A stretch of DNA of 32,000 bases from Candidatus Saccharimonadota bacterium (GTDB lineage Bacteria > Patescibacteriota > Saccharimonadia > Saccharimonadales > Saccharimonadaceae). The DNA is taken from positions 90,001 to 122,000 of the forward strand of contig CP075337.1 of assembly GCA_025349965.1 (NCBI GenBank), given 5' to 3'. This document shows positions 3,388-23,359 of the stretch, piece by piece (position 1 is the first letter of the stretch; the number at the start of each line of letters is the position of its first letter). Both the position numbers and the translations under genes were made by a program. The notes below the pieces were generated by a model. That model had not been told where the DNA came from. It saw nothing but the letters and a program-made list of their open reading frames with translations, and did not search any database.

Positions 3388-3498
3388 TAAAATCCCTCCA
3401 ATAATCGTTTCCATTACTATACCATATATAGTAATTAACCGTTTTAAATCCACTACTTATTGTAACAGAGCAGGTTCATTGTAGGGTACAATGGGGAT

Positions 3499-4506
3499 AT
3501 GTTTATGGTTTTACTTTTTCTCGTGTTTATCCTTGCAGTATTCTTTGGATCGGTCTCTCTCCGACAAGATGACCTAAGCGCCAAGGAGCTTGCTCGGCGC
3601 GCTAAACGCTCACAGGCGTACAAGCTTCGTCTGCGACGTCAAGAGTCGCTAACAAGTCTTATTGTTATGGCTCGTCTCGGCACTTGGATATTTCTTATTC
3701 TCTTCGTGGTATTGTCGACGCTTTGGTTTGGTTGGGTTGGAGGTTTCTTCCTATCACTTCTGGCTGCTGCGCTATATCCTGTTTGCACGCGTATGAAAGT
3801 CGCTTCAACGCTCAGTACAAAACTTTACGTAAAAGTCGAGCCGTATCTTTTGACTGCTGCCGAGAAAGTGCCGTGGCTATGGCGCTTTTTCCATGGACGC
3901 ATTGCTGATACATTTGGATCGGAGCGAGTATTTGCGTCACGCGAGGAGTTGAGCGAGAGCATTGCCGCCTCGACAGGTATTTTGACTGACGATGAACAAC
4001 TTCTTTTGGCTAATAGCTTGTCATTTCGCGATAAGAAAATAAAAGAAGTCATGACGCCGCGCGGTGTAGTGCAGACAGTGAAGAAGGATGAGTTTATCGG
4101 TCCGCTTGTGCTTGACGAGTTGCACAGTCTTGGGCATAGTCGACTTCCGGTGATTGATGGTGATATTGATCACGTTGTGGGCGTGCTTCATCTGCGTTCG
4201 CTTTTATCACTTGATGTGCGAACCTCCGAGTCTGCCGAAAAATTAATGGATCCGCAAATCGTTTATATTCACGAAGACGATTCACTCCAGAAAGCACTTA
4301 CCGGCTTTATTAAAAAACGCCAACACCTTTTTGTGGTCGTAAACAGCCAGCGCGAAACCGTTGGTCTTGTCACGCTTGAGGATGTTATTGAGACGCTCAT
4401 TGGCAAGAAGATTGTAGACGAAGATGACGTGCACGATGATATGCGTGTTGTAGCGGATGAAAAGGGCAGGTCTAACAACAATAGCCCTAATGGGACGTAT
4501 CTTTAG
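3499..4506 (+). CDS. CBS-pair domain membrane protein (CNNM/CorC-like, no C-terminal CorC domain seen)
   Basis: N-terminal TM helices followed by a CBS pair (MTPRGVVQTV...GHSRLPVID...VGVLHLRSLL; ...VVVNSQRETVGLVTLEDVIETLIG). A -10-like TACAAT (3487-3492) lies 6 nt upstream of the ATG. Confidence 0.8.
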   Translation: MFMVLLFLVFILAVFFGSVSLRQDDLSAKELARRAKRSQAYKLRLRRQESLTSLIVMARLGTWIFLILFVVLSTLWFGWVGGFFLSLLAAALYPVCTRMKVASTLSTKLYVKVEPYLLTAAEKVPWLWRFFHGRIADTFGSERVFASREELSESIAASTGILTDDEQLLLANSLSFRDKKIKEVMTPRGVVQTVKKDEFIGPLVLDELHSLGHSRLPVIDGDIDHVVGVLHLRSLLSLDVRTSESAEKLMDPQIVYIHEDDSLQKALTGFIKKRQHLFVVVNSQRETVGLVTLEDVIETLIGKKIVDEDDVHDDMRVVADEKGRSNNNSPNGTYL

Positions 4507-4555
4507 CGCCCACCTCTGGTAAAACATCAGAAAAAGTGTTAAAATACAAAGTAAT

Positions 4556-5869
4556 ATGACACGAGTACTTACGGATTCAATCGCCGCACATGTGGGCGAA
4601 ACAATTACTATTGAAGGTTGGCTACATAAAAAGCGCCTCCTTGGTGGGCTTAACTTTATCACCCTGCGTGACCGCCGCGGTCTTGCACAGAGCCTTATCG
4701 AAGATAAAGATCAAGTAGAAAAACTTCGTGGCATGCAGATTGGAACAGTGTTTGCGTTGACCGGTCTTGTCGTTGCTGACGAGCGTGCGCCGGGTGGTGC
4801 CGAGCTTCACGATGTGCAAGTTGAAGTAATCGTACCAGTAACGGATGAATCTCCAATTGAGATTGATAAGCCGCTTGATCACAAGTCTGAAAATCTCGAT
4901 ACGCTTTTTGAGCACCGTGTTATTGGCCTCCGTAACCTTCAGGAGGCGGCTATCTTCAAGGTGCAGGCTGAGGTAAAAGATGCAGCTCGTACCTTCTTTA
5001 AGGAAAATGACTTCACCGAATTTAACTCACCAAAGCTTCTTCCTGCGGCTACCGAAGGGGGTGCGGAAGTATTCAAGCTTGATTACTTTGGTAAAGAGGC
5101 GACCTTGGCACAGAGTGCCCAATTCTATAAGCAGATTATGGTTGGTGTATTTGAGCGTGCTTATGAGATTAACCCAACCTATCGCGCAGAGCTTTCTGCG
5201 ACCACTCGCCATATGACTGAATTTATGCACATTGATGCGGAGATGGGCTTTGTCACCTTTGACGAACTCCTTGATTTCGTTGATCGCTTTATCCACTCGG
5301 TTACAGCTACTGTTTGGGAGAATCACGAAACGGCACTTAAAAAGTGGAACGCAACACCCGTAAAACTTTCTGAAACACTTCCGCGTTTGTCGCTTGAAGA
5401 AATTCACGAGCTCTACACTAAGGCAACGGGTGAAGATACTCGCGGCGAGAAAGACCTCCGTCCCGATGAAGAGCGTTGGGTGACCGAATATACCAAGAAG
5501 AAGTTTGGTAGCGAGGCGGTATTTGTTGTTGATTGGCCAGTTGAAGAAATGAAATTCTATCACCGCAAGTCGGCGGAGAACCCACAGTTTGCAGAGCGGG
5601 CCGACCTTATTTTCCGTGGCGTAGAAATTGCAACCATCAGTATGCGTGAAAATCGTTACGACGTACTGCTTGAGCAACTTAAAACTATCGCTGGGGGCGA
5701 CCCAGAGGCTGAAGGCTTTAAATATTATCTTCAGGCATTCCGTTACGGACTTCCACCACACGGTGGGTTTGGTATGGGCCTCGAGCGCCTTACGCAGAAG
5801 ATTGTTGGCTTGAAGAATGTTAAAGAAGCGTCACTCTTCCCGCGCGACATTAACCGCTTAGGACCGTAA
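4556..5869 (+). CDS. aspS: Aspartate--tRNA ligase, archaeal/type-2 form (possibly non-discriminating)
   Basis: 437 aa class IIb synthetase with an N-terminal OB fold (ITIEGWLHKKRLLGGLNFITLRD). Motifs present: QSAQFYKQ, YRAELSATTRHMTEFMHIDAEM and GLPPHGGFGMGLERL. The length fits the short archaeal-type AspRS. AsnRS is not fully excluded. Confidence 0.85.
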   Translation: MTRVLTDSIAAHVGETITIEGWLHKKRLLGGLNFITLRDRRGLAQSLIEDKDQVEKLRGMQIGTVFALTGLVVADERAPGGAELHDVQVEVIVPVTDESPIEIDKPLDHKSENLDTLFEHRVIGLRNLQEAAIFKVQAEVKDAARTFFKENDFTEFNSPKLLPAATEGGAEVFKLDYFGKEATLAQSAQFYKQIMVGVFERAYEINPTYRAELSATTRHMTEFMHIDAEMGFVTFDELLDFVDRFIHSVTATVWENHETALKKWNATPVKLSETLPRLSLEEIHELYTKATGEDTRGEKDLRPDEERWVTEYTKKKFGSEAVFVVDWPVEEMKFYHRKSAENPQFAERADLIFRGVEIATISMRENRYDVLLEQLKTIAGGDPEAEGFKYYLQAFRYGLPPHGGFGMGLERLTQKIVGLKNVKEASLFPRDINRLGP

Positions 5870-5872
5870 CCG

Positions 5873-6703
5873 TTGCCGGACGTGCTAACGCAACAGGAAG
5901 TTACTGATTTTCAGGAAGAGGTTTGGCGGCAGGGGCGTGAACTGTATCGACCGATGCCCTGGCGAGAAAACACGAATCCTTATTTTGTCTTGGTAAGCGA
6001 GATTATGCTTCAGCAAACACAAGTAGACAGGGTTGTCCCAAAGTTTGAGGCATTTATTGCGACATTTCCGTCAATTTCGGAACTTGCAGAGGCGCCACTT
6101 TCTAAAGTGCTCGAGCTGTGGAGCGGTCTGGGCTATAACCGTAGGGCGAAGTTCCTTCATGAAGCTGCTAAGAAAATAACCACCGAGTTTAATGGTGTGT
6201 TTCCTGAGACTGAAAAAGAACTCATTTCCCTTCCAGGAGTGGGGGTGAATACCGCCGGGGCAATTTTAGCGTATAGCTTTAATCATCCGTCGATCTTCAT
6301 TGAAACGAATGTGCGCACAGTGTACTTTTATCATTTTTTCCAACATGATAATGATGTAACGGACACAACACTAAAAGAGTATATAGTGGCAACGCTTGAT
6401 GCCGAACATCCACGCGAGTGGTACTGGGCAATCATGGACTATGGAAGCCATCTTAAGCGAAGTGGGGTCGGGGCAAATAACAAGAGCCGTCACTACAAGA
6501 AGCAGACGCCCCTAAAGGGGAGTGTCCGTGAAGTACGCGGTAGTATCTTGAAAGAATTAACAAGGGCCGAGAACCATGCCTTGAGTATCCCGCAACTAGA
6601 GATGCTCTTTCTGGGGGATCCTCGCTTTGTGCTTGCATTCGACGGACTGAAAAAAGATGGCCTTGTTTACATTGAAAAAGACACCATTTACCTTGCTCGG
6701 TAA
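5873..6703 (+). CDS. MutY-like HhH-GPD DNA glycosylase lacking the 4Fe-4S cysteine cluster
   Basis: TTG start 3 nt after the aspS stop. MutY-type motifs are present: SEIMLQQTQVDRV, GLGYNRRAKFL and the HhH LPGVGVNTAGAILAYSF. The protein has no cysteine at all, and a winged-helix-like tail replaces the Cys cluster and NUDIX region. Confidence 0.75.
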   Translation: MPDVLTQQEVTDFQEEVWRQGRELYRPMPWRENTNPYFVLVSEIMLQQTQVDRVVPKFEAFIATFPSISELAEAPLSKVLELWSGLGYNRRAKFLHEAAKKITTEFNGVFPETEKELISLPGVGVNTAGAILAYSFNHPSIFIETNVRTVYFYHFFQHDNDVTDTTLKEYIVATLDAEHPREWYWAIMDYGSHLKRSGVGANNKSRHYKKQTPLKGSVREVRGSILKELTRAENHALSIPQLEMLFLGDPRFVLAFDGLKKDGLVYIEKDTIYLAR

Positions 6704-6722
6704 ATCAGCAAACAGGTATACT
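6693..6722 (+). promoter_or_regulatory. Promoter TTGCTC-18-TATACT positioned for a leaderless transcript
   Basis: The -10 TATACT (6717-6722) is followed by AGATAT and then ATG 6729. The 14-mer TATACTAGATATAT recurs at 27408-27421. Confidence 0.5.
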
Positions 6723-6728
6723 AGATAT

Positions 6729-7277
6729 ATGCATCGGTATTATCGCAGTATTGGAACTATCGCCTTTAGCTTTGTCGCGTTGGCATTGTTTGTGGTTCTT
6801 GGAACTTCGAGCGTACATGCAGCTTCTCCTGAACTCTCGAGTGAGCAGCGTCAACACATTCGGTCTGAATGCACACAGATTAAAGGTTCGCTGAGCCAAC
6901 TTCATGCAAGTGACGCGCTTCTTCGGGTTAACCGCGGGCAAGTATACGAGTCTATGACGAGTAAGCTTATGACTCCATTCAATACACGCCTTAGTACAAG
7001 TGGTCTCGATAATAAAGCTATGACAACTCATACACTTCAGTATCAAAGCGCGCTCGTTGCCTTCCGCAATGACTACATTCTCTACGAGCAAAAAACTTCT
7101 GAGGCGTTGCGGATAGACTGCGGCCAAGAACCAGCACGATTCTATCAGGCGATTCTTGATGCGCGTGACCTGCGCAGTACTGTTCATGATGATGTTCAAA
7201 AGCTCCACAGGATTATTAATGACTACGGTGACGCTGTCGGTGACTTCCTGCTTAACTATAAGAGGCTGGCAAATTAA
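6729..7277 (+). CDS. Secreted hypothetical protein
   Basis: Start moved from 6657 to ATG 6729 (MHRYYRSIGTIAFSFVALALFVVLGTSSVHA/AS signal peptide). The longer form overlaps the MutY-like gene. No family recognised. Confidence 0.6.
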   Translation: MHRYYRSIGTIAFSFVALALFVVLGTSSVHAASPELSSEQRQHIRSECTQIKGSLSQLHASDALLRVNRGQVYESMTSKLMTPFNTRLSTSGLDNKAMTTHTLQYQSALVAFRNDYILYEQKTSEALRIDCGQEPARFYQAILDARDLRSTVHDDVQKLHRIINDYGDAVGDFLLNYKRLAN

Positions 7278-7666
7278 TGGCTACGACAGAAGATACCTCA
7301 CCACTACTACCGCCACGAGTAGAGCCACCGGCGTTCTGGGAACGCCATCGTCTGACGCTCCTTCTTGTGCTCTCTGTTTCAATCGCACTTGTACTGACTA
7401 TCGTAAGTGTTATTTTGTATACCAACTCCGGGGCCGCTCAGCTTGATCTTAGTCGCCCAGGCTACCGTGCCGTAAGTGATAAGGTAGAGCGCAATAGCGA
7501 AATAGATCAGTATTCAAGCATTGGTCCGGTGACGGATAAAACAATCCAAGAATTTATTAAATTATACAAAACCCAAGCAGGGAAGGCTAAGGCTGTTGAT
7601 GCCTTCTCGGGCGATCCGCTCAACCCAGAAGTACTGGTCTTCGGATCTTCTTCCTCTGATAATTAG
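7277..7666 (+). CDS. Single-pass membrane hypothetical protein
   Basis: The ATG overlaps the upstream stop by 1 nt (TAATG), suggesting translational coupling. TM helix LTLLLVLSVSIALVLTIVSVILY. Confidence 0.6.
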   Translation: MATTEDTSPLLPPRVEPPAFWERHRLTLLLVLSVSIALVLTIVSVILYTNSGAAQLDLSRPGYRAVSDKVERNSEIDQYSSIGPVTDKTIQEFIKLYKTQAGKAKAVDAFSGDPLNPEVLVFGSSSSDN

Positions 7667-8943
7667 AGGGTAGGTGCTTTCGCGGCGTAGGCGCGCACCC
7701 AAGCGTCAATTGTTCCTGCGCCCATACAGAGCACGAGGCTGCCATTTTCGCGTGCCGTCGTAATTGCGCTTTCAAGCCCATCGTTCAAGTCACCGAAGTG
7801 GAGAGACCCATCTCTGTGAAGGCGGTTAGTCAGAGTTTCCGGTGAGAGTATCTCTTGTGTGGTATTCTCTCGAGTGAGGTATGTAGGAAGCCAGTAAATT
7901 TCATCGGCGCCTTGGAATACTTCATCGGTGTATTTTTCGCGTACTTCGTGTTGCCGAACGTTTTGGTGTGGCTGGTAGACGAGCGTAACGTGCTCTGAAA
8001 TTTCTCTTGCAAGTTGTAACGTAGCTGCAATTTCTTTGGGGTGATGTCCGTAGTCACTATAAAGGAGTGGTGCGATGAGCTCAAAGCGCCGGTCGGTGCC
8101 TGGAAACGTATTTAGCACTGAGAGCACGGTCGCTTCATCACAAATTTTAAGTCGAGTAAGAAGGGTATGTACAAGTGTAGCGTTACGTCGCGTGTGTGCG
8201 CCCGGAAGATGGAGCGCCTCAAGCGGTAGGACACTATCGGCCTGTAATATTTCAACGGCATTGGAGGCAATCGCCCCGATGTACGCTCGGTCTGACTCCC
8301 ACATATAAGTGTGAGCTGATTGTTGGATGTACTGTAAAAATGCTTGCTTGTAGTTTTCTTCGGTGGGATAGGTGTCTGGATGGTCGTAGTCAATTGACGT
8401 GATGAGTGATACCTCAGGATTGAAATGAAGGAAATTGCGATCAAATTCATCACATTCGTAAATGAAATATTCACTTCCTGGTTCATATGCACCACTCGGC
8501 CCGAAAGTAAGTGTTGTGCCGACGGAATAACTTACCGGTATGCCAAGTTGTTTAAAGGCCCACACTGCCATACCGGTGGTACTTGTCTTCCCGTGCGTAC
8601 CTGCGATTGCAATCATTTTAAGCGAATGCGCCTTAATAAACTCCGCAAGAAACTCGTCACGCTTGCCGGTGCGAATCCCAAGTTCACGCGCCTTTACGAG
8701 TTCAGGGTGGGTGTCTGGAAGAGCGGACGTATACACGAACCAATCGAGTGGCTGTTCTTGATGGCGAGCCTCTAGAAAGCTGCCGTCTTGCCCGATAGAG
8801 ACGGTAATACCTTTTTCTACGAGCTGTGCCGTAACGCGCCCTTCGGCAGCATCAGATCCGGTAACGGTATGTCCGGCGTCATGAGCGATTTCAGCAAGCG
8901 GTCCAATCCCAACTCCGCCAATACCTGAGAAATAAATATTCAT
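7663..8943 (-). CDS. Mur ligase family protein (MurC/Mpl-like UDP-N-acetylmuramate ligase)
   Basis: N-terminal Rossmann motif FSGIGGVGIGPLAEIAHDAGHTVTGSD and P-loop IAGTHGKTSTTGM. The start is placed at ATG 8943 (MNIYFSG) because the 8964 codon is TTG. About 426 aa is short for MurC, so an Mpl-type enzyme is possible. Confidence 0.8.
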   Translation of the reverse strand: MNIYFSGIGGVGIGPLAEIAHDAGHTVTGSDAAEGRVTAQLVEKGITVSIGQDGSFLEARHQEQPLDWFVYTSALPDTHPELVKARELGIRTGKRDEFLAEFIKAHSLKMIAIAGTHGKTSTTGMAVWAFKQLGIPVSYSVGTTLTFGPSGAYEPGSEYFIYECDEFDRNFLHFNPEVSLITSIDYDHPDTYPTEENYKQAFLQYIQQSAHTYMWESDRAYIGAIASNAVEILQADSVLPLEALHLPGAHTRRNATLVHTLLTRLKICDEATVLSVLNTFPGTDRRFELIAPLLYSDYGHHPKEIAATLQLAREISEHVTLVYQPHQNVRQHEVREKYTDEVFQGADEIYWLPTYLTRENTTQEILSPETLTNRLHRDGSLHFGDLNDGLESAITTARENGSLVLCMGAGTIDAWVRAYAAKAPTL

Positions 8944-9032
8944 ATACCTTACAGTATAGCGCAAGAGAGGCTAAAGTTGCGAATAAAACAGGGGTGTGGT
9001 GTAATAGATATAACACAGGTGGAAATATAAAA

Positions 9033-10253
9033 ATGATAAAGAAATTCTTTCATGCTCTTCTTTTGCGACGTCGCTTCTGGCGTTATGCAACCATGAGTGA
9101 AGTTGCAGAGATCTACATGTCCCGCATGCTAAGGGTTATGGCGCTCAATATGATGAGCGCATTTATCGTGATTTATCTGTACCAGAATGGATTTTCGGTG
9201 TCGCTCATCGCGTTTATCTGGGCGGCGCTTTATGGCTTCAAGATGCTTATCGCCTTGCCGCTCGCAACGCTTGTTGCATGGATTGGTCCGAAGCATTCAA
9301 CCTTCGTCTCCAATCTTCTTTATATCCCTGCGATGATTCTTTTTGCACTCATCCCAATACACGGTGACTGGCTGATTATTCCGGCCTTAACGTTTCAGGC
9401 TGTCAGTACTGTGCTGTACACTATTTCTCATTCGGTGAACTTTTCAAAAGTGAAAAGCCTTGAACATGCTGGTAAAGAGATTGCTGTAATGAATATTGTT
9501 GAAAAAGTGGCAGCAGGGCTTACGCCGATGCTCGGCGGTTTTCTGACACTTCTCTGGGGTCCGCAAGTAGTCATTGGTATTTCGGCACTCCTTTTTCTCT
9601 TTGCTGCTGCACCGCTATTTAGAACGGGCGAGCAAGTCCAGACTCGTCGTGTGCTGAAGTTCCGCGGCTTTCCGTGGCGGCTCTTCTTTGGGCAGTTTGG
9701 CGCCCATATTGCCACCGGGTTTGACGGCTTTGCTTCGGGGGTTGTGTGGTCGCTGTATGTTGCGATTATTGTTATAGGGATGGGTCATGGCAACGAGGTC
9801 TATGCCGTTACCGGTGCGCTCCTCTCGGTTGTTTTTGTGGTTTCGCTTATCTTCTCTTACATCTACGGTCGCCTTATTGATAGAAGGAAGGGCTGGCTTT
9901 TGTACAAGACTGGCGTGCTTGCAAGTGTGTTCGTGCACGCGATGAGGCCCTTTATCACAACAACGATTGCGGTTGCGGGACTTAATGCGGTAAAAGAGGC
10001 GACAAATACGGCGTACATGTTGCCGTATACGAGGGCAAGCTTTGACAGTGCTGATATATCAGGTGCGCGCTCTACGTACCTCGGCTTAACAGATGCTACG
10101 AGCAACTTCGGCGCAGCCCTGTCCTCGCTGGCACTTGGTGTGATTGCGTTGGCGATACCTCAAGGTGCCGCAGGGTTCCATGTTTTCTTTTTCATGACAG
10201 CTGCTGTGATGCTTCTTTTCTTGACCGCGCGCTTCCCGCTCTATAAGAAATAG
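9033..10253 (+). CDS. MFS-type transporter
   Basis: About 12 predicted TM helices across 406 aa. ATG 9033 is preceded by AGGTGG at 10 nt. The longer GTG 8994 form is rejected. Confidence 0.7.
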   Translation: MIKKFFHALLLRRRFWRYATMSEVAEIYMSRMLRVMALNMMSAFIVIYLYQNGFSVSLIAFIWAALYGFKMLIALPLATLVAWIGPKHSTFVSNLLYIPAMILFALIPIHGDWLIIPALTFQAVSTVLYTISHSVNFSKVKSLEHAGKEIAVMNIVEKVAAGLTPMLGGFLTLLWGPQVVIGISALLFLFAAAPLFRTGEQVQTRRVLKFRGFPWRLFFGQFGAHIATGFDGFASGVVWSLYVAIIVIGMGHGNEVYAVTGALLSVVFVVSLIFSYIYGRLIDRRKGWLLYKTGVLASVFVHAMRPFITTTIAVAGLNAVKEATNTAYMLPYTRASFDSADISGARSTYLGLTDATSNFGAALSSLALGVIALAIPQGAAGFHVFFFMTAAVMLLFLTARFPLYKK

Positions 10254-10320
10254 CAGTAAAGATGGTACAATAAAAGCAGTTATAGCAAGGTGGGGGCGCG
10301 AGAGTACTGCGTGCAAAAGT

Positions 10321-10953
10321 GTGGAAAATAGAGGAAAAATACAAAAGGGTATAGAAGGGCTGCAGCGAGTACGCACATGGCAGCTTGTTATTCTTTTGAT
10401 TATTTTTGGGTTTGTCGCGGCTACGTTTTTACGTCTTAATAGTATCGGTATGGTGCAGCGACGAGAGGCGGTACTGGCCGCTGATAAGGCGGGGAATGCC
10501 GACATAACCCTTCAAAGGTTGTATGACTTACAACACTATGTTAGTAGCCATATGAATACAGATTTGGGAAAAGGTGTATATCTCGAGGCGGGGTATAATC
10601 GCGATGTTCAGGTGTGGCAAGAGAAGTACTATGGAGACTCCAACCCTAATGGCAATATCCACAAAAAAGCACAAGAAGTTTGTGCGCCAAAATTCTCCTC
10701 TTGGTCACCGGCATATATCCAATGTACCACTAATGAATTGAACAAATATCCCGCTGCTCAGAACCCCGGCGCAGATACGAGTAAGCCCCGGCAAGAGGCG
10801 TACATCCATTCCTTCAGTTCACCGGTCTGGAGTCCAGATTTCGCCGGCTGGAGCGTGCTTGTCGTTGGGGTGATTCTTCTCCTTATTGTGATTAGAATTC
10901 TTGCATACGGAATTCTAAAACTTTTACTAAATAGACACTATAAGCGTGTTTAA
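10321..10953 (+). CDS. Bitopic membrane hypothetical protein
   Basis: An N-terminal TM helix (WQLVILLIIFGFVAATFL) and a C-terminal TM helix (WSVLVVGVILLLIVIRILAYGI) flank an extracytoplasmic domain containing 2 Cys. GTG start with no clear SD, so the start is uncertain. Confidence 0.55.
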   Translation: MENRGKIQKGIEGLQRVRTWQLVILLIIFGFVAATFLRLNSIGMVQRREAVLAADKAGNADITLQRLYDLQHYVSSHMNTDLGKGVYLEAGYNRDVQVWQEKYYGDSNPNGNIHKKAQEVCAPKFSSWSPAYIQCTTNELNKYPAAQNPGADTSKPRQEAYIHSFSSPVWSPDFAGWSVLVVGVILLLIVIRILAYGILKLLLNRHYKRV

Positions 10954-11021
10954 TGTTGACAGCACCCCCTTTGAGGCGGTACGCTAACACCGTATATCAT
11001 TAATAGGAGGTATATACTCAC

Positions 11022-11228
11022 ATGGCGTATAGTCACACAAATTCCAAAGGTATCACTTACTACTTGCACAGCACCGAAGTAACACTTCGCGGCGGAAAGC
11101 CACAAACAATCTTCTTCTTCGCAAAGGTAGAGAAGAACGACAAGGGTACTCCAGTAGACCTTCCAGCAGACCGTATCGTTAAGGAAAACCCACGTAACGG
11201 CTTCCTTACTGTTTCAAAGAAGAAGTAG
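11022..11228 (+). CDS. Small conserved-looking hypothetical protein (68 aa)
   Basis: A very strong SD (TAGGAGGT) lies 9 nt upstream of the ATG. The basic protein (MAYSHTNSKGITYYLHSTEVTLRGGKPQTIFFF...) is followed by the hairpin GGGTCG-aaaatt-CGACCC at 11248-11265. Confidence 0.65.
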   Translation: MAYSHTNSKGITYYLHSTEVTLRGGKPQTIFFFAKVEKNDKGTPVDLPADRIVKENPRNGFLTVSKKK

Positions 11229-11274
11229 TCTCCTAGAGCCTTAGAATGGGTCGAAAATTCGACCCAAAATAGAC

Positions 11275-11303
11275 TTGCACCATAAGCGCTTTGAGCTTAT
11301 ACT
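11275..11303 (+). promoter_or_regulatory. Promoter TTGCAC-17-TATACT
   Basis: -35 at 11275-11280, a 17-nt spacer, and -10 at 11298-11303. It is followed within about 25 nt by the 11326 terminator. Confidence 0.45.
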
Positions 11304-11325
11304 AAGTTCAAACAAACAGGTGCCG

Positions 11326-11358
11326 AAAACACTCCCATTCCCCGGGGGTGTTTTTATT
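11326..11358. terminator. Rho-independent terminator (usable in both directions)
   Basis: AAAACACTCCC / loop ATTCCCC / GGGGGTGTTTT, followed by TATTTG. The reverse complement is followed by TTTTCGGC. Confidence 0.7.
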
Positions 11359-11392
11359 TGTATCATTTCCCCCGTTGCGCTAAATGAGAGCA

Positions 11393-11422
11393 AGCCCCGC
11401 CAGAAGTACCTCTGGCGGGGCT
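11393..11422 (-). terminator. GC-rich 11-bp perfect hairpin downstream of the NrdH-like gene
   Basis: AGCCCCGCCAG / loop AAGTACCT / CTGGCGGGGCT, 31 nt past the stop at 11454. It lacks a strong U-tract (I-shaped style). Confidence 0.5.
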
Positions 11423-11453
11423 ATAAGTGCTCTTGGTTGATGCATGGGTTGGG

Positions 11454-11822
11454 TCATGCCAGCTGCGGCACGAGCGACTTGATTGCAGCAAGCGCCTCAA
11501 TGTTGTCGGGGTTAAGGCCGCTCCAGTGAGCAAAGCCTTCGGTTCGCAGGCCGGTAATCATCTTGCGGGCGAGCTCGTTCTTCGTGATAGTCTCGAAGAC
11601 AACCTCGTCGGCAGGGATCTGCCGCTTCAGGTCATCGTCGATTTCCACGGTGACGACAGGTGCCTGCAGGTAGCCGAGCTCCTTGACGCGAGCGAGATCA
11701 GCGCTGTGCTCATCGGCCGAAATGTCCGGGATGATGGCATGTGCAATCTCGTGCTTGTCGAACAGCTCCCCAGTGCGGGTGCACTGCCAGCAGACGAGCT
11801 TCTTGTACAGCGTAACATTCAT
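11454..11822 (-). CDS. nrdH: NrdH-like glutaredoxin-fold redoxin with an internal insertion of about 35 aa
   Basis: MNVTLYKKLVCWQCTRT carries the CxxC motif (NrdH has CVQC). APVVTV and the NrdH-type C-terminal motif WSGLNPD (NrdH has WSGFRPD) are present. AAAGGA lies upstream of ATG 11822. Three hand-counted 60-nt lines give 57-60% GC. Confidence 0.7.
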   Translation of the reverse strand: MNVTLYKKLVCWQCTRTGELFDKHEIAHAIIPDISADEHSADLARVKELGYLQAPVVTVEIDDDLKRQIPADEVVFETITKNELARKMITGLRTEGFAHWSGLNPDNIEALAAIKSLVPQLA

Positions 11823-12094
11823 TTTCTTATTCCTTTCAAAAGTGTCAGTCACAAGCGCGACTGGCGAATCAGAAGGGAAATAGCATCATGTCCAAGAGCG
11901 ATTCAGGCACTCATGAACAAGGAATACTACCCCCTATAGGCGTACTCAACCCTCCAGTGAGAGTGCGAATCTGTGTTTCATTGTACGCCTCCCGCTCGGC
12001 TAGGGCTAGGGCTATATGGTGTGAAAACGTAGTAAAATACGCTATATATGGTGGATAAGTAGGGTAGCCTGTAATTCCAACCGAGGTAGAGCGA

Positions 12095-12123
12095 TTGACT
12101 TTTTTACAAGCTTATGCTATAAT
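12095..12123 (+). promoter_or_regulatory. Near-consensus promoter TTGACT-17-TGcTATAAT positioned for a leaderless transcript
   Basis: TTGACT 12095-12100 and TATAAT 12118-12123, then GCAGTC and ATG 12130. It is 24/29 identical to the promoter at 17500-17528. Confidence 0.7.
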
Positions 12124-12129
12124 GCAGTC

Positions 12130-12972
12130 ATGGAAAACAGCCGTATCTCACCTCAAAGCCACGGCGCTCAAGTAGGGCTTGAAGCCCCAACTCTTTTTGA
12201 TGATTGGGATGAGCAAACAGGCGAGTTTGATACGGGACAACTAAAGGTCATTGAGCAGGCTACTGAAATTGTTGAGCAAAGCCAAGAGCGGACGCGCCAT
12301 CTTCTTGATTTGGGCGGAGTGGCGATGCTGCGATTTGCTGAGGTCGAGGTAGGGCCAAAGCCCGCACACCTTACTGTTGCCGACGCGCAGCGCAAGCTTG
12401 AGGCGCAGCGGGAGAGGGATGACCGAAACGATGCTTACAGCGAGTACGGTAGCCGCGAGGTGTACCCATTTGCTACAGCCCTTGACGCTTATGAGCCGTG
12501 GCACGAGCAAACGCGCCGGATGATTGAACAGTATCAGGTGAGCACTATGGACCGCTCGGATTTTGAGGCAATGAGCAAATCCCACCAAAAGGCATTGAGC
12601 TATAGCTTCTTTAGAGACTATGAGCGTACGAAAACACTGAAGCGTTTGATTGAGGAGAATCACGGCGAAGCTCAAAACGATCAATATTTAATTGAGGCGT
12701 TTGGCCGGAGTCATTCCGCACCAGAACTGCAAAGTTATGCTCGAGTGCTTGAGGGGCTTCTTCGTGATGTTGAGTCAACTGGTATCCCGTGGGCGGTGCG
12801 CAAGGTCCTAGGAGTGCCCGATCCACGTCAGAGTAGCTCGGCCGGTAAAAGCTATTTTGAAAAAATGCGCGCTCAGGCGTTGAAAAAATGTATGTCAGAC
12901 TATGCTAAAAATGGTCCAGCTCAAGTGGTGCTTGGTAATAGTGGCTATGTCGTACGACGCATAAGTAAGTAA
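12130..12972 (+). CDS. Acidic cytoplasmic hypothetical protein (280 aa)
   Basis: Long ORF behind a near-consensus promoter. No TM helix, signal peptide or family motif was recognised. Confidence 0.6.
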   Translation: MENSRISPQSHGAQVGLEAPTLFDDWDEQTGEFDTGQLKVIEQATEIVEQSQERTRHLLDLGGVAMLRFAEVEVGPKPAHLTVADAQRKLEAQRERDDRNDAYSEYGSREVYPFATALDAYEPWHEQTRRMIEQYQVSTMDRSDFEAMSKSHQKALSYSFFRDYERTKTLKRLIEENHGEAQNDQYLIEAFGRSHSAPELQSYARVLEGLLRDVESTGIPWAVRKVLGVPDPRQSSSAGKSYFEKMRAQALKKCMSDYAKNGPAQVVLGNSGYVVRRISK

Positions 12973-12978
12973 CGGTCT

Positions 12979-13509
12979 TTAATTGGGTGACTTGAACCAC
13001 TGTGCATATACTGCACGTGCTTTGGAAATTTTAGGGCTAATAACAACCGAACAATAGCCGCTGTCTGGATTCTTATTAAAGTAATCTTGATGTTCGCCTT
13101 CTGCTGGGTAAAACACGTCAAGCGGTGTAATTTGCGTAACAATTGCATCACCCCAGTGTTTAGTGGCACGCTGGATTGCGGCAGTAAAGTCTTGGCGCTG
13201 CGCTTCATCTGCGTAGAACATCGCAGAACGGTACTGAGGGCCAGTGTCGGCCCCTTGACGATTAAGTGTGGTGGGGTCGTGCACCAGGAAGAATAGGTCA
13301 AGGATAACTTCTTTAGAAATAACAGCTTCGTTAAAAGTAATTTGAACGGCTTCGGCATGGTCTGTTGCCCCAGTAGCAACACGTAAGTAATGGGCGTCGG
13401 TTTGCGAACCGCCGCTATATCCGCTTATCACCTTCTCAACACCTTTTAGGCGACGATATACTGCGTCAAGGCACCAGAAGCAGCCACCGGCTAGTACGTA
13501 GGTAGTCAT
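12979..13509 (-). CDS. msrA: Peptide-methionine (S)-S-oxide reductase
   Basis: Active-site motif LAGGCFWC at the N-terminus, GYSGG, and a length of 176 aa. Confidence 0.95.
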   Translation of the reverse strand: MTTYVLAGGCFWCLDAVYRRLKGVEKVISGYSGGSQTDAHYLRVATGATDHAEAVQITFNEAVISKEVILDLFFLVHDPTTLNRQGADTGPQYRSAMFYADEAQRQDFTAAIQRATKHWGDAIVTQITPLDVFYPAEGEHQDYFNKNPDSGYCSVVISPKISKARAVYAQWFKSPN

Positions 13510-13515
13510 ACTTTT

Positions 13516-13524
13516 ATTATAACA
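13516..13524 (-). promoter_or_regulatory. Extended -10 (TGtTATAAT) 6 nt upstream of the msrA ATG
   Basis: The minus strand reads TGTTATAAT-AAAAGT-ATG. There is no room for an SD. Confidence 0.55.
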
Positions 13525-13526
13525 AT

Positions 13527-13549
13527 AAGATCAGGCATGGCCTGATCTT
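13527..13549 (-). terminator. Hairpin downstream of tRNA(CAT) 13565-13640
   Basis: AAGATCAGGC-atg-GCCTGATCTT is a 10-bp perfect inverted repeat. On the minus strand it is followed by ATTGTTATAAT. Confidence 0.5.
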
Positions 13550-13564
13550 GCTGGGTGTCTAGAA

Positions 13565-13640
13565 TGGTGGGGCTGGTTGGAATCGAACCAACTACCAAGT
13601 GGTTATGAGCCGCCTGCTCTAACCGATGAGCTACAGCCCC
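13565..13640 (-). tRNA. tRNA with CAT anticodon, Ile2(lysidine)-like or elongator Met; CCA encoded
   Basis: The reverse complement GGGGCTGTAGCTCATCGGTTAGAGCAGGCGGCTCATAACCACTTGGTAGTTGGTTCGATTCCAACCAGCCCCACCA folds as a 76-nt cloverleaf. The anticodon arm AGGCGGCTCATAACC resembles E. coli ileX as I recall it. There is one C-A mismatch in the anticodon stem. Confidence 0.9.
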
Positions 13641-13743
13641 AATGCTTTTTATTATACCGCCTTTAACCCTTGTCGCCAATGGGATTGTTTTGATGAGACC
13701 TCTGTTTGCTTAATGCTATAATAAGCGTAAGGCATATGGTCTT

Positions 13744-14220
13744 ATGAAGCAGTCCGATATACAAAAAATCGTTTACCGAATACGGCACAAATATTTCACG
13801 TTTAACAACGTAGTTATTTTTGTGGCGTTTTTAATTGCGGTAGGGTGGCTATGGGGCTCTCTACAGGTAATGCAGCGTAATTATACACTGCAACGCGAAG
13901 TAGATAATAAGCGTCGGGAGCTTATGGTGACGCGTCTTCAGAAAGACAGTCTTGAGCTCCAGAAGCGATATTATCAAACGAATGAGTACAAAGAGATGGC
14001 GGCGCGTGAATCACTCGGGCTCGTGATGCCGGGTGAGCGCGTGCTTATTTTACCGGCGAACACTGAAGCTGTTAAAAAAGCTGATACACAGGCGGCAAAT
14101 CGTGGAGTTGTTACAGAGGCGACACCACTTACTACCGAGGCGAGCAATGTTGAGCAATGGATGAACTTCTTGTTTGGCGGGTACAGTCAGAGTATGCGGG
14201 CGGCGGAGGAAGAAAAATAG
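13744..14220 (+). CDS. FtsB/DivIC-like septum formation initiator
   Basis: An N-terminal TM helix (VVIFVAFLIAVGWLWG) followed by a coiled coil, then the family-typical ARESLGLVMPGERVLILP segment. An extended -10 TGcTATAAT at 13714-13722 lies upstream. Confidence 0.65.
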   Translation: MKQSDIQKIVYRIRHKYFTFNNVVIFVAFLIAVGWLWGSLQVMQRNYTLQREVDNKRRELMVTRLQKDSLELQKRYYQTNEYKEMAARESLGLVMPGERVLILPANTEAVKKADTQAANRGVVTEATPLTTEASNVEQWMNFLFGGYSQSMRAAEEEK

Positions 14221-14260: not shown

Positions 14261-14338
14261 TGGTAGCGGGGGCAGGATTTGAACCTGCGACCTTGTGGTT
14301 ATGAGCCACACGAGCTAACCGGGCTGCTCCACCCCGCG
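14261..14338 (-). tRNA. Initiator-like tRNA-Met (CAT), CCA encoded
   Basis: The reverse complement is CGCGGGGTGGAGCAGCCCGGTTAGCTCGTGTGGCTCATAACCACAAGGTCGCAGGTTCAAATCCTGCCCCCGCTACCA. It is near-identical in the acceptor, D and T arms to E. coli tRNA-fMet as I recall it. It has an unpaired 1:72 position (C:U). Only two of the three G-C pairs expected at the base of the anticodon stem are present. Confidence 0.9.
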
Positions 14339-20453: not shown

Positions 20454-20481
20454 CAAAAAAACCCTTCCTTTGAGGAGGGTC
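20454..20481 (-). terminator. Rho-independent terminator, inferred to be the original tRNA-Met terminator displaced by the islet
   Basis: The minus strand reads AGACCCTCCT-CAAA-GGAAGGGTTTTTTTGTTTG. It begins 13 nt from the left TTGGTAG repeat and has the same layout and TTTTTTGTTTG tail as the terminator after the initiator-like tRNA. Confidence 0.65.
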
Positions 20482-20494
20482 TTTAAATCATTTC

Positions 20495-20501
20495 TTGGTA
20501 G
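20495..20501. repeat. Left copy of the 7-bp direct repeat TTGGTAG (putative attL core)
   Basis: Identical to 26152-26158, which is the reverse complement of the tRNA end CTACCA plus one nucleotide. Confidence 0.5.
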
Positions 20502-20630
20502 AATGGGTTCATTCGAAATGGAACTCAATTCTTTCTGAACTGGTAGCCATGAATCGTATCGTTGAAGCTTCTAGGGATTATGACCTGTTGAGTATTAAGC
20601 GTTAGTGATTGAACTATAGGTGCTAATGGC

Positions 20631-21602
20631 TTACAGATTTTCCACCGACATTTTATGGGTCTCCTTATTAACCCGTAGTTCGTACTCTTTTGTGATGGAG
20701 TGGTGCTGGGTATTCGCCACGCCATCGTTGACTGTGCTGGAAAGCTCATAATCGTCACGCTCTGGTCGCCGCAATAAGACAATTTTGTAATACATTGTCA
20801 CTCTAGCGTTGAGGTAGTAATTCTCATCATCTTCCTTGTAGATGTAGTAATTTTCTAGGACATCGGTCAACCACTCTGAGTCTAAAATTTCCCAATCGTA
20901 TTTGAAGGAGTAGTCAAAGTCGAAAGGACGTTCTTGTTCTGTTATGTCAGCATCGGTCTGCTCTAGGTATGGTTGGAGGGTTTCCAAAATCACCTCTTCA
21001 GTAATGTAGTCAACTGTCTTACTATTCATTTCCAAGAAGCTACCGAGACTCGTATGATACACCACTCTCTCTTGGACGCCCAAGCTTAAGAGTTCATCTC
21101 TAAGTGCTTGACTTAGTTCATTTTTACCGAAATCATCTGAATTTTCAGATATGAAGGCTACTTTCTTTGTAGGGTTTTTGGTTAGATACGCTATCAAGCT
21201 GTACCAAATTAGCGTATCCATAAAGCCACGCCCTCTCGACTTAAACGGAGCAGTTTCATGAACGGCTCTATCGAACAGCTGGTCTACGGTAACATCTCCC
21301 CAGCCGAGGTGCTGCTTAAAGGGCGCTGTGTAATTGTCGAATTTTGCTATAATTGCATCGCTAATCTCCGCCCTACTTACAGAGTTCTCTATCAGGCCAA
21401 GTTTTACCTGTTTCAGCTGTTGAAACTTTCGATATTCGGCATCTGCAGTTGCTAGTGCGTGTTTTTTGACCTCCGCTTCAACGACTGATGGTATGAGCAG
21501 CTTCTTTTCAGACAATAACAAGAACGTACTTAGCGCCTGAAATTCTGGCGTTTCAAAGGAGCTGTTCTTGTCGTAGATGTTTGTATCAAGCAGGATATCC
21601 AT
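20631..21602 (-). CDS. PIN-like nuclease domain protein (DUF4935/PIN_12-like N-terminus) with an unassigned acidic C-terminal domain
   Basis: The motifs MDILLDTNIY, LIPSVVEAEV, GFMDTLIW and ISENSDDF supply the conserved acidic positions in PIN order. Residues from about 170 to 323 are beta-rich and acidic, with no family recognised. Confidence 0.65.
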   Translation of the reverse strand: MDILLDTNIYDKNSSFETPEFQALSTFLLLSEKKLLIPSVVEAEVKKHALATADAEYRKFQQLKQVKLGLIENSVSRAEISDAIIAKFDNYTAPFKQHLGWGDVTVDQLFDRAVHETAPFKSRGRGFMDTLIWYSLIAYLTKNPTKKVAFISENSDDFGKNELSQALRDELLSLGVQERVVYHTSLGSFLEMNSKTVDYITEEVILETLQPYLEQTDADITEQERPFDFDYSFKYDWEILDSEWLTDVLENYYIYKEDDENYYLNARVTMYYKIVLLRRPERDDYELSSTVNDGVANTQHHSITKEYELRVNKETHKMSVENL

Positions 21603-21608
21603 TTACTT

Positions 21609-21617
21609 ATGATACCA
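21609..21617 (-). promoter_or_regulatory. Extended -10 (TGgTATCAT) 6 nt upstream of the PIN-like gene ATG
   Basis: The minus strand reads TGGTATCAT-AAGTAA-ATG. Confidence 0.5.
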
Positions 21618-21705
21618 GTATTACCGAGGCACATAAAATCACCTTGAAACTGGAGTGCAGTGTAGCCCCTACAACAATCTTGTTAAGTTAGGTACAATAG
21701 CGTAA

Positions 21706-22809
21706 ATGGCGTCTATAATTGTTCGGTCAAAGCTGATTAGTAGTATGGTAAAAAACCGCAGGGCTAACTCTGAGGATATTGATGCTGAGCTTAATCTTAA
21801 ATCAACCTCTATCGCAGAACTCCTTGCTGAGGATAGAGATGTTGATTTTAAGGACATTCAGTCTATCGCCAAGTACTTCAAGAAGCCATGGTCATATCTC
21901 CTGCTGGAACATGAGGAGACGATGCCTACGATTGGGCGAGACCATCGTACTGTCCGTAATGTAGAAGCATCATTTTCGAGTGACATGCTCAACGAGTCTG
22001 TATGGGCGGAGGATTACTTAGATGAGGCAAAAGAGCTTAGCGAAGAAGGCTCTTCTCTGTCGCCAACGTTACCTGTCGAACATACTCCAGCGGGTGTGCG
22101 AGACTTTTTTGACATCAGCACTGATGATATTTTTAAACTTCGTGATGATTATGCAGCTCTGAAGCTTTGGGTTCGTAAAATCGAATCTACTGGTGTATAC
22201 GTTGCTCAAAGAAGAATACCCGATGAGACAATTCGAGCTTATTCGACTTCAAAGCATGGCATAGTACTTATAGTTGTTAATACTAGAGACTCTGCTGCTG
22301 CTCGAATCTTCTCTCTTATGCATGAATACTGTCATGTACTATTCAATACTACTGGATTGTGTGATTTTGATGAGCATAATACAGTTGAAACAAAGTGTAA
22401 TCGTTTTGCGGCCGATGTTCTAATGCCAGCTGGCGACCTTGCTGAGAAGAATGACAGCTACGAATTCAATCTCGACCTTATTAAAGATGAAGAACACGCT
22501 ATTTGGCTAAGTAGAAAGTTTAAAGTGAGTCAGGCTGCCATGTTTATCAGGCTGCTAGAAAAGCACTATATCTCCGAGCCAACATACCGTGCTTTAGAGC
22601 GCAGAAGAGCGTTACGAAAGGCGAAGAAAAGCAGCGGAGGAGATTATTATAAGGCAAAAATAAACGCCGTTGGAGTAAAATACGCAAGCCTGGTGCTGGA
22701 TGCCTTAAGTAGAGGTGTTATTAACCGTAAAGATTCAAGTGTTCTCCTAGGGGTGGGTGAATACTCGGTTGTGAGTTTTAAGGAAAACTTGAGGAAAAAC
22801 GTGGAGTAG
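21706..22809 (+). CDS. Fused XRE-type HTH / ImmA-IrrE family (COG2856, peptidase M78) zinc metalloprotease
   Basis: N-terminal HTH-like segment (LKSTSIAELLAEDRDVDFKDIQSIAKYFKKPWSYLL). HEXXH motif in SLMHEYCHVLF. The family-typical FAADVLMP motif is present. TACAAT (21693-21698) lies 7 nt upstream of the ATG. Confidence 0.75.
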   Translation: MASIIVRSKLISSMVKNRRANSEDIDAELNLKSTSIAELLAEDRDVDFKDIQSIAKYFKKPWSYLLLEHEETMPTIGRDHRTVRNVEASFSSDMLNESVWAEDYLDEAKELSEEGSSLSPTLPVEHTPAGVRDFFDISTDDIFKLRDDYAALKLWVRKIESTGVYVAQRRIPDETIRAYSTSKHGIVLIVVNTRDSAAARIFSLMHEYCHVLFNTTGLCDFDEHNTVETKCNRFAADVLMPAGDLAEKNDSYEFNLDLIKDEEHAIWLSRKFKVSQAAMFIRLLEKHYISEPTYRALERRRALRKAKKSSGGDYYKAKINAVGVKYASLVLDALSRGVINRKDSSVLLGVGEYSVVSFKENLRKNVE

Positions 22810-22813
22810 TAAG

Positions 22814-23359
22814 ATGAGTTCTATTACGCCGCTTTACTGTGTAGATACTAATACCTTGGTTAGTTTCTTGAAAGAGTCGGATGATGAGCTGTACGGAAGA
22901 GACGTTTTTGCTCCTCAATGGGAGATGATTGAGTCTTTAATCGAAACGGGTCTAATAATAGCACCGAAGAATGTAAAGTTAGAATTAGATAAGTGGAAAG
23001 CAAGTAGCCCCGAAGTAAAGGAGTGGTTGTCGGCTCATACTTACATGTTTGTAGATATTGACGACCAACAGCTGGTATCATCACGAACTATATTGGGTAA
23101 GTATGAGGCTTACTCGAAAAATGAAAATTATGCTAACGACCTCAGTGTCATTGCACTAGCTCATTCAGCTAATCTTACTGTTATCACTCTTGAGCAGTTG
23201 GCGGCTACTCATGCGGCCACTAAACCAAAAATACCAAATGTGTGCCAAGACTTTGGAGTCAACTGTGTATCGGTTAGTGGTTTCTTGCGGCTTGAAAAAA
23301 TCCGCCAGACGACAGAACCTGCTATTGCTGTCCAAGAATCTTCAATACCCCTGGCATAA
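22814..23359 (+). CDS. DUF4411-type PIN-like nuclease
   Basis: There is a 4-nt gap after the protease gene, with a GGAG SD inside its 3' end. Motifs present: YCVDTNTLV, KLELDK, ANDLSVIALA, VITLEQ and KIPNVCQDFGV. Confidence 0.65.
   Translation: MSSITPLYCVDTNTLVSFLKESDDELYGRDVFAPQWEMIESLIETGLIIAPKNVKLELDKWKASSPEVKEWLSAHTYMFVDIDDQQLVSSRTILGKYEAYSKNENYANDLSVIALAHSANLTVITLEQLAATHAATKPKIPNVCQDFGVNCVSVSGFLRLEKIRQTTEPAIAVQESSIPLA

Follow-up and report, generated by a model that had tools for sequence, protein, structure and literature searches.

A small genomic islet of a Saccharibacteria raises the question of whether three neighbouring genes, which encode two PIN-like nucleases and a putative regulatory protease, represent a single defence or addiction system. 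The islet is located in a stretch of 32,000 nt from a Candidatus Saccharimonadota bacterium (contig CP075337.1 of assembly GCA_025349965.1, positions 90,001–122,000), here termed the window, with positions counted from its first nt. A minus-strand gene for a 323-aa protein of the PIN_12 family is divergent from a plus-strand operon, in which a gene for a 367-aa protein with a helix-turn-helix (HTH) and an M78 peptidase domain is followed by a gene for a 181-aa DUF4411 protein. An earlier interpretation, the sequence-only reading, was correct as to the coordinates of these genes, their protein lengths, the divergent region of 103 bp and the gap of 4 nt, and proposed a three-gene module. The analysis indicates that the trio does not make up a single system and is best read as two independent modules on one islet. 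With a probability of roughly 0.7, the locus represents a mini defence/addiction island of Candidatus Saccharibacteria bacterium TM7i, a ~5.7-kb serine-recombinase element that is inserted at the tRNA-Met 3' end and carries both modules. Module 1 (21706–23359) would be a candidate two-gene Rosmer-like type II toxin-antitoxin (TA) operon. Module 2 (20631–21602) is a solitary DUF4935/PIN_12 gene that simply neighbours module 1.

The separation into two modules comes from a comparison of homologous loci. These consist of 38 metagenome loci with relatives of the 367-aa protein, 50 GTDB genome loci with PIN_12 relatives, the contigs of the closest homologues of the PIN_12 and 367-aa proteins, and 4 viral loci. 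Three hidden Markov models (HMMs) built for the families were run against all open reading frames (ORFs) of 95 loci. No PIN_12-family gene is found in the 34 M78 loci, and DUF4411 is absent from all 54 PIN_12 loci. An M78 gene is present in 1/54 PIN_12 loci, where it is a weak match situated 3 kb away. Because PIN_12 and M78-DUF4411 genes do not co-occur in the surveyed loci, the trio is not a unit. Co-occurrence of homologues in other genomes had been set beforehand as a check of the three-gene module, and the homologues are not co-localized elsewhere.

The two genes of the operon are closely linked. DUF4411 is directly downstream in 32 of the 33 M78-subfamily loci (out of 34) that have at least 150 nt of downstream sequence, and the lone locus without it has just 167 nt of sequence left. 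The M78 and DUF4411 genes overlap by 4 nt in 14 of the 32 paired loci, which suggests translational coupling of DUF4411 to the antitoxin gene. The closest relative of the pair, locus L005, has protein identities of 67% (M78) and 59% (DUF4411). A blastn comparison of the window islet with L005 shows homology confined to positions 21692–23295, i.e., the two-gene cassette, which also speaks against a three-gene module; the homologous stretch starts 14 nt ahead of the ATG and reaches into the 3' part of the DUF4411 gene. L005 itself (positions 6793–13400) represents a similar islet: a small ORF is accompanied by a serine recombinase gene, and the 3' end of the latter overlaps the 3' end of a tRNA. 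The recombinases of the two islets are 26.6% identical, and the small ORFs are 50% identical over 36 aa. Since the recombinases have so much lower identity than the cassette, the cassette has moved independently. The divergent slot in L005 is occupied by a TIR-like protein of the CAP12/PCTIR type (365 aa), which has no relationship to the PIN_12 protein. A common C-terminal "sensor" domain in the PIN_12 and TIR-like proteins was considered, and BLASTP gave no similarity. Together, L005 and the window islet suggest that serine-recombinase islets which target tRNA genes form a family, and that their defence cargo can be exchanged.

In the next relatives, L006 and L007, the pair is found inside a type I restriction-modification (R-M) operon and beside an HTH-Panacea TA. 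Within L006 (positions 3557–13932) the M78-DUF4411 pair and the HTH-Panacea gene with its 142-aa partner, two TA-like cassettes, separate hsdS from hsdR in the R-M operon; upstream there is an Mrr-like gene. Elsewhere the neighbours of the pair are TIR genes, a PD-T4-6-like kinase, AbiEii, Imm_superinfect and an IS1595 transposase. On the basis of the DUF4411 linkage, the bounds of the L005 homology and these varied neighbours, the M78-DUF4411 pair is a self-contained ~1.6 kb cassette of defence islands, with interchangeable neighbours. Positions of the genes and other features are given in Table 1.

Table 1. Positions of genes and sequence elements of the islet in the window
Feature	Positions	Strand	Basis or remark
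PIN_12 protein, 323 aa	20631–21602	-	Pfam PIN_12 (PF16289, ex-DUF4935)
RmrA-like antitoxin/regulator candidate, 367 aa	21706–22809	+	Pfam Peptidase_M78
Gap between HTH-M78 and DUF4411 genes	22810–22813	.	4 nt
DUF4411 PIN-like toxin candidate, 181 aa	22814–23359	+	Pfam DUF4411
Divergent intergenic region	21603–21705	.	103 bp
Inverted repeat TGTAGcccCTACA	21661–21673	.	Abuts the repeat at 21673–21684
Inverted repeat AACAAtcTTGTT	21673–21684	.	Sequence
Putative left islet junction	20454–20501	-	TTGGTAG repeat and hairpin with U7
DUF4352 membrane-anchored protein, 187 aa	23404–23967	-	Pfam DUF4352, E = 1e-28
71-aa ORF of recombinase operon	24432–24647	+	No Pfam match
514-aa large serine recombinase	24652–26196	+	Pfam Resolvase, E = 9.4e-31; Recombinase, E = 8.3e-6
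tRNA-Met (CAT), presumed integration target	26153–26229	-	ARAGORN; Rfam tRNA, 65.6 bits

The divergent intergenic region is the stretch through which, in the three-gene proposal, the genes would be controlled in common. The palindrome reported in the sequence-only reading, AACAATCTTGTT, is present and overlaps the promoter region of the protease gene; it is at chance level. Perfect inverted repeats with 5-nt arms and a spacer of 0–6 nt are expected ~0.76 times per 103 bp in the window. The two adjacent inverted repeats at 21661–21684 are thus at chance frequency, and neither is conserved in L005, the closest homologous locus. A -10-like TACAAT is found at 21693–21698, 7 nt before the ATG of the 367-aa gene. 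Comparison of the sequence upstream of the M78 gene in the window (21693–21706) and in loci L058–L081 shows a -10-like TAnnnT that ends 6–9 nt before the M78 start in 16 of the 19 relatives examined, without a Shine-Dalgarno sequence. This suggests that, across phyla, transcription of the HTH-M78 gene yields a leaderless mRNA. A promoter-like site on the minus strand (21686–21659) overlaps the inverted repeats. In a scan for consensus promoters and terminators, the sites are no more numerous than in shuffled sequence.

These data bear on the proposal that all three genes constitute one defence or addiction system, in which the HTH-protease controls two PIN-like effectors through the 103-bp region. 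The divergent arrangement of the PIN_12 and M78 genes about a common region is consistent with it, as are the overlap of the inverted repeats with both promoter-like sites and the presence in L005 of another predicted effector-type gene, the TIR-like gene, divergent from the homologous operon in a similar islet. The proposal is nevertheless very improbable: the genes do not occur together in the 34 M78 or 54 PIN_12 loci, the L005 homology excludes all of the intergenic region beyond 14 nt from the ATG, the repeats are neither conserved nor above chance, and the genes upstream of the pair in other loci are unrelated and on either strand. A TA or anti-phage role, close to the self-stabilizing or anti-phage system suggested earlier for the trio, is a reasonable reading for the operon.

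The profile searches proposed earlier, with Pfam and PADLOC, reveal PIN-like and M78 relationships, and all three domain assignments hold. The 367-aa protein consists of a divergent XRE-type HTH (approximately residues 1–66), a helical linker, an M78 core and a conserved helical C-terminal region. The Pfam Peptidase_M78 match covers residues 160–282 (E = 9.1e-15). The motif HEYCH is at residues 206–210 (nt 22321–22335), and H206, E207 and H210, together with E228 and N232, are invariant across 53 M78 relatives. The match and the invariant motif bear out the ImmA/IrrE (COG2856) assignment made from the sequence. The AlphaFold2 model has a predicted local distance difference test (pLDDT) value of 92.9, and its N-terminal part displays helices at residues 8–17, 22–29, 36–41, 48–57, 62–66 and 83–87 and two short strands. 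The N-terminal HTH is below Pfam significance in this protein, and HTH_3 is reached by 2 of the 53 relatives. A profile-profile alignment (hhalign) with more distant relatives that have HTH_3 and M78 domains extends over residues 1–367 with a probability of 100% (E = 5.9e-60). Because this alignment to HTH_3-bearing relatives spans the full length, the XRE-like HTH is supported as a divergent homologue, and the helical N-terminal part of the model lends it further support. The fusion of HTH and protease in the absence of a separate repressor, as originally noted, is thereby upheld; no separate HTH gene is present in the islet.

Structural and model searches place the 367-aa protein near known antitoxins and regulators. 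In PADLOC 14 RmrA models match it, the best with E = 1.8e-16 (~58 bits), and two of the 14 matches span residues 16–19 to ~300. A profile search of PDB sequences shows a match of residues 48–364 to 9vzy_A (E = 3.4e-38). Chain A of 9vzy is a solved 393-aa "HTH cro/C1-type domain-containing protein"; no publication on this entry was found in the searchable literature, and it may represent the first structure of this HTH-peptidase antitoxin class. The profile match to IrrE in PDB sequences has E values of ~3–5e-4, and Foldseek matches the peptidase part of the model to IrrE/PprI (3dti, 8sln) with a probability of 1.0. There is also a full-length match to phrog_2439 (E = 1.9e-34), which carries the label transcriptional regulator.

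The 181-aa protein matches DUF4411 over residues 8–163 (E = 2e-24; 86.6 bits compared with a cut-off of 23.5) and Pfam PIN with E = 1.6e-4. At least 24 of 26 DUF4411 partners retain D11, E57, D109 and E127. These residues correspond to the motifs by which the protein had been recognized as DUF4411 PIN-like.

The three-gene arrangement had not been recognized earlier as a named defence system, and this has to be qualified, since the M78-DUF4411 part has already been described. A fused HTH-DUF955 (COG2856) gene upstream of DUF4411.1 was reported by Matelska et al. (2017, PMC5499597), who interpreted it as a three-component TA of regulator, protease and nuclease. The window pair is of this type, with a fused HTH and M78 protein directly upstream of a single-domain DUF4411 protein with four acidic residues. 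There is no structural difference; the window member is distinct in its occurrence in Saccharibacteria, its location on a tRNA-integrated serine-recombinase islet and its very divergent HTH. The HTH-DUF955/DUF4411 class is itself a bioinformatic prediction only. RosmerTA consists of a Zn-peptidase antitoxin and a variable toxin of unknown function, and for the Rosmer configuration Millman et al. cited Matelska et al. (Millman et al. 2022, bioRxiv 10.1101/2022.05.11.491447). In NetFlax, the D25 ImmA/Rosmer antitoxin node is a hub, often HTH-fused, that is linked to PIN-like domains among other toxins (Ernits et al. 2023, PMC10440598), and the window operon falls within this zone. In pneumococcal RipAB (Spr1630/1629), the XRE-ImmA protein has been shown experimentally to neutralize its toxin.

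Similarity of module 1 to RosmerTA is seen in the XRE-HTH fused to an ImmA-type Zn peptidase with RmrA model matches, in the two-gene operon with a tightly linked, variable small toxin, and in the defence-island and mobile-element context. The differences are that the toxin in the window is a PIN-like nuclease, whereas among the RmrT proteins studied by experiment that of phage Kita depolarizes membranes and RipA is directed at the sliding clamp, and that the antitoxin gene comes first in the window pair. ImmR/ImmA of ICEBs1 and DdrO/IrrE (PprI) of Deinococcus have in common with module 1 the M78 HEXXH fold and the principle of a stress-triggered protease that acts on an HTH regulator. In those systems the substrate is a separate HTH repressor and the genes controlled are for excision or repair, whereas in the window the HTH is fused, the islet has no separate repressor gene and a PIN-like nuclease is the conserved partner.

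A mechanism for module 1 can be proposed with RmrA/RmrT, RipAB and ImmA/ImmR as analogues. The 367-aa HTH-M78 protein would serve as antitoxin and autoregulator, and the 181-aa DUF4411 protein as a toxin, namely a metal-dependent nuclease of the PIN-like kind. At rest, the toxin would be held inactive by the antitoxin, which would also repress its own promoter, probably a leaderless one. The peptidase/sensor part of the antitoxin would respond to a trigger, e.g., infection by a phage, damage or element loss. Once the antitoxin had been inactivated or had processed itself, the nuclease would be released to degrade RNA, and the cell would be arrested. Abortive infection or post-segregational stabilization of the islet may result.

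A number of observations weigh against this interpretation of the locus. The RmrA scores are weak at ~58 bits, and the NCBIfam equivalog model NF052239 (spr1629) gives 55.6 bits against a cut-off of 335 and matches residues 157–297 only. The DUF4411 protein has no PADLOC RmrT match; its sole PADLOC match is PDC-S70 (E = 0.013). Defence-finding software would probably not report Rosmer at this locus. With modest RmrA scores and no RmrT match, the pair is filed under HTH-DUF955/DUF4411, with a presumed Rosmer-like mode of working and not as a catalogued subtype. In IMG/VR no relatives of the M78 subfamily were found with the patterns used. As to the survey, room for a divergent 1-kb gene (at least 1.5 kb upstream) is available in 18 of the 34 M78 loci, about half, and several of the surveyed loci are near-duplicates. 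The inverted repeats overlap the -10/-35 region of the plus strand as well as the minus-strand promoter-like site, and the HTH protein may co-regulate PIN_12 locally. Finally, experiments on any DUF4411 or DUF4935 protein are lacking in the searchable literature, so toxicity and neutralization are extrapolated.

A different role for the operon would be control of the islet. The HTH-M78 protein would then be a fused ImmR-ImmA of the element that controls excision by the recombinase, with DUF4411 as an accessory and with no TA or defence function. M78/ImmA proteins are established as controlling ICEBs1 excision (cited in PMC10440598), the operon is found in an integrative islet in both the window and L005, and the full-length PHROG match bears a regulator label. 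The pair is also present, however, in loci with no recombinase nearby, for example within the type I R-M operon or beside AbiEii, kinase or TIR genes. The coupling to DUF4411 in nearly all loci, often with overlapping stop and start codons, is a signature of TA pairs, and the difference in identity between recombinases and cassettes described above implies independent movement. Excision control is accordingly regarded as quite improbable, and a TA operon is preferred.

Module 2 encodes a typical full-length member of the DUF4935/PIN_12 family, with nothing that distinguishes it. The Pfam match to PIN_12 covers residues 3–158 (E = 2.8e-20; 73.9 bits, cut-off 32). D6, E44, D129 and D157 are invariant in an alignment of 40 PIN_12 relatives, and the PIN-type motifs noticed in the sequence-only reading map to these four residues; the PIN domain is thus predicted to be catalytically intact. 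The AlphaFold2 model (pLDDT 90.4) consists of a VapC-like PIN domain at residues ~1–195 and a C-terminal domain at ~200–323, with a helix at 202–219 followed by, and packed on, four long antiparallel strands at 235–322. The beta-rich C-terminal domain, proposed from the sequence and to be checked by structure prediction, is therefore real in the model. Foldseek matches only the N-terminal half of the model to VapC-type PIN proteins (PAE0151, VapC2 and VapC20; probability 1.0). For the C-terminal domain neither Foldseek nor a profile search of PDB sequences gives a significant PDB match. A known fold was sought for this domain, and Foldseek gives weak, non-significant resemblances to PARC6, SPLUNC1 and cystatin-like folds (E > 0.01). 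One phage-encoded protein in BFVD, A0A8S5M7Q9, matches the entire two-domain model (E = 1.6e-14; TM 0.67).

Matelska et al. describe DUF4935 as a PIN domain with an alpha/beta C-terminal region without known homologues, and as usually mono-cistronic (PMC5499597). The 323-aa protein agrees with this in its PIN domain with four acidic residues, the long helical insert, a C-terminal region of alpha/beta type and the stand-alone gene. In the searchable literature DUF4935 is mentioned only in the 2017 PIN classification and in a genome report, and PADLOC has no model for the PIN_12 family. An exhaustive HMMER search with a threshold of E ≤ 1e-3 reveals 833 representative PIN_12 clusters. The best 150 of the 833 are mostly 320–380 aa in length, and the closest relatives among the matches listed align over the full length.

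The nearest PIN_12 homologues, with ~36% identity, are found in three contexts: alongside a DEAD/SNF2 helicase in another islet with a serine recombinase, beside an AAA/S8-protease pair, and within an R-M/Schlafen-helicase island. The closest homologue (36% identity) is in L001 (positions 3034–10981), where the islet also has a gene for an unannotated 270-aa protein; the helicase there is a 1069-aa DEAD/SNF2 protein with weak matches to type IV restriction and PbeA. The 270-aa and 273-aa products of genes upstream of PIN_12 in L001 and L004 were considered as a conserved partner. They do not cluster with one another and have no Pfam or PADLOC match. A survey of neighbour families over 52 PIN_12 loci shows a heterogeneous set that includes type I R-M genes, integrases, AbiJ and housekeeping genes. 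The sole recurrent theme is type I R-M genes, which are neighbours of a distant subgroup. In six loci (L033, L034, L037, L038, L039 and L046) distant PIN_12 genes are inside conserved type I R-M operons with HsdM/HsdS/HsdR-like genes. These loci echo the PIN genes in R-M operons noted by Matelska et al. (PMC5499597). In metagenome-assembled genomes of Solirubrobacterales, PIN_12 paralogues are found side by side in tandem (L017, positions 4809–7077; L020, positions 4492–6762).

Both PIN-like proteins of the window have the VapC-type fold and acidic quartet in common with VapBC. They differ in that no small VapB-type antitoxin gene (RHH/AbrB/Phd/HTH, less than ~100 aa) is upstream of either gene. 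The partner of DUF4411 is the 367-aa HTH-peptidase, whereas PIN_12 has no partner ORF and has an additional C-terminal domain. Neither a small antitoxin ORF nor a known RNA was found beside the window PIN_12 gene. The PIN_12 protein would act alone, with its C-terminal domain, a putative built-in regulatory or sensing domain, gating the nuclease.

Two further interpretations of PIN_12, taken together, are rather unlikely. In the first, PIN_12 would be an unrecognized single-gene anti-phage or abortive-infection nuclease, whose private helix/beta-sheet domain senses the invader and unleashes the PIN domain. This would fit the repeated occurrence of PIN_12 genes inside type I R-M operons, within defence islands, on integrase-linked islets and on a small number of phage contigs. 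In the second, the HTH protein would have captured PIN_12: the RmrA-like protein would bind the overlapping divergent promoters, and PIN_12 would be a second, co-regulated effector.

It may also be asked whether the two independent modules are functional at all. One or both could be decayed or inert passengers, e.g., a PIN-like protein that is not toxic or a degenerate HTH that does not bind. The HTH is too divergent for Pfam, with few relatives that match HTH_3, Saccharibacteria genomes are reduced, and experimental data are absent. On the other hand, all ORFs are intact and of full length, the peptidase and the two PIN-like proteins retain their family-invariant catalytic residues, and the AlphaFold2 models of the PIN_12 and HTH-M78 proteins are confident. 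Decay is therefore held to be about as improbable as excision control.

The main value of the analysis is negative: adjacency of defence genes on a tiny islet represents defence-island clustering and not a functional unit. The trio defines no new defence system, and both gene types are already catalogued. What is documented is that an ultra-small epibiont has, on a tRNA-targeting serine-recombinase islet, a Rosmer-like pair of an HTH-peptidase and a PIN-like protein as well as a predicted nuclease of the DUF4935 family. Accessory genes are few in Saccharibacteria, where phage defence has been little explored. The pair is a tightly bounded cassette that moves between islets and R-M operons, and either PIN-like family would be inexpensive to assay for toxicity and anti-phage activity.

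The islet context of the three genes is plausible. GC content is 0.39–0.44 in windows over ~20.5–26 kb, compared with 0.45–0.51 in more distant flanking windows. This dip, the serine recombinase and its overlap with tRNA-Met agree with the sequence-only view of the genes as cargo of a small recombinase islet. The recombinase has Resolvase and Recombinase domains, with a marginal Pfam match to Zn_ribbon_recom (E = 0.062). It is below the cut-off of CcrB/XisF-like models and matches the phrog_95 integrase (E = 2.1e-74). The last 44 nt of its gene and the 3' end of tRNA-Met overlap on opposite strands, and the C-terminal residues of the recombinase (…ATRIELVTSSL) are encoded within the tRNA sequence.

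Long att repeats were sought at the islet ends and none were found. Exact-sequence look-ups of proteins flanking the islet gave no record, and no empty integration site was retrieved. The only repeats found are TTGGTAG at 20495–20501 and 26152–26158 (7 nt) and GATTGAACT at 20607 and 26169 (9 nt), both of chance-level length. Because the TTGGTAG repeat is short enough to be due to chance, the islet boundary is placed by inference; the islet would be ~5.66 kb if the element entered at the 3' end of tRNA-Met. A hairpin with U7 at ~20454–20480 on the minus strand abuts TTGGTAG (fold -14.4 kcal/mol, z = -1.8). It may represent the native terminator of tRNA-Met, displaced by insertion of the element at the tRNA 3' end.

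A transmembrane segment is located at the N-terminus of the DUF4352 protein, which has a full-length match to phrog_806 (E = 6e-42) and, in its N-terminal part, weak matches to Sie-like superinfection-exclusion PHROGs. It is separate cargo of the islet, possibly a third cargo gene of the exclusion type and a moron similar to those for superinfection exclusion. The window has three tRNA-Met (CAT) genes in total, with two more at 13565–13640 and 14261–14338, both on the minus strand. The three probably represent the initiator, elongator and tRNA-Ile2-type species.

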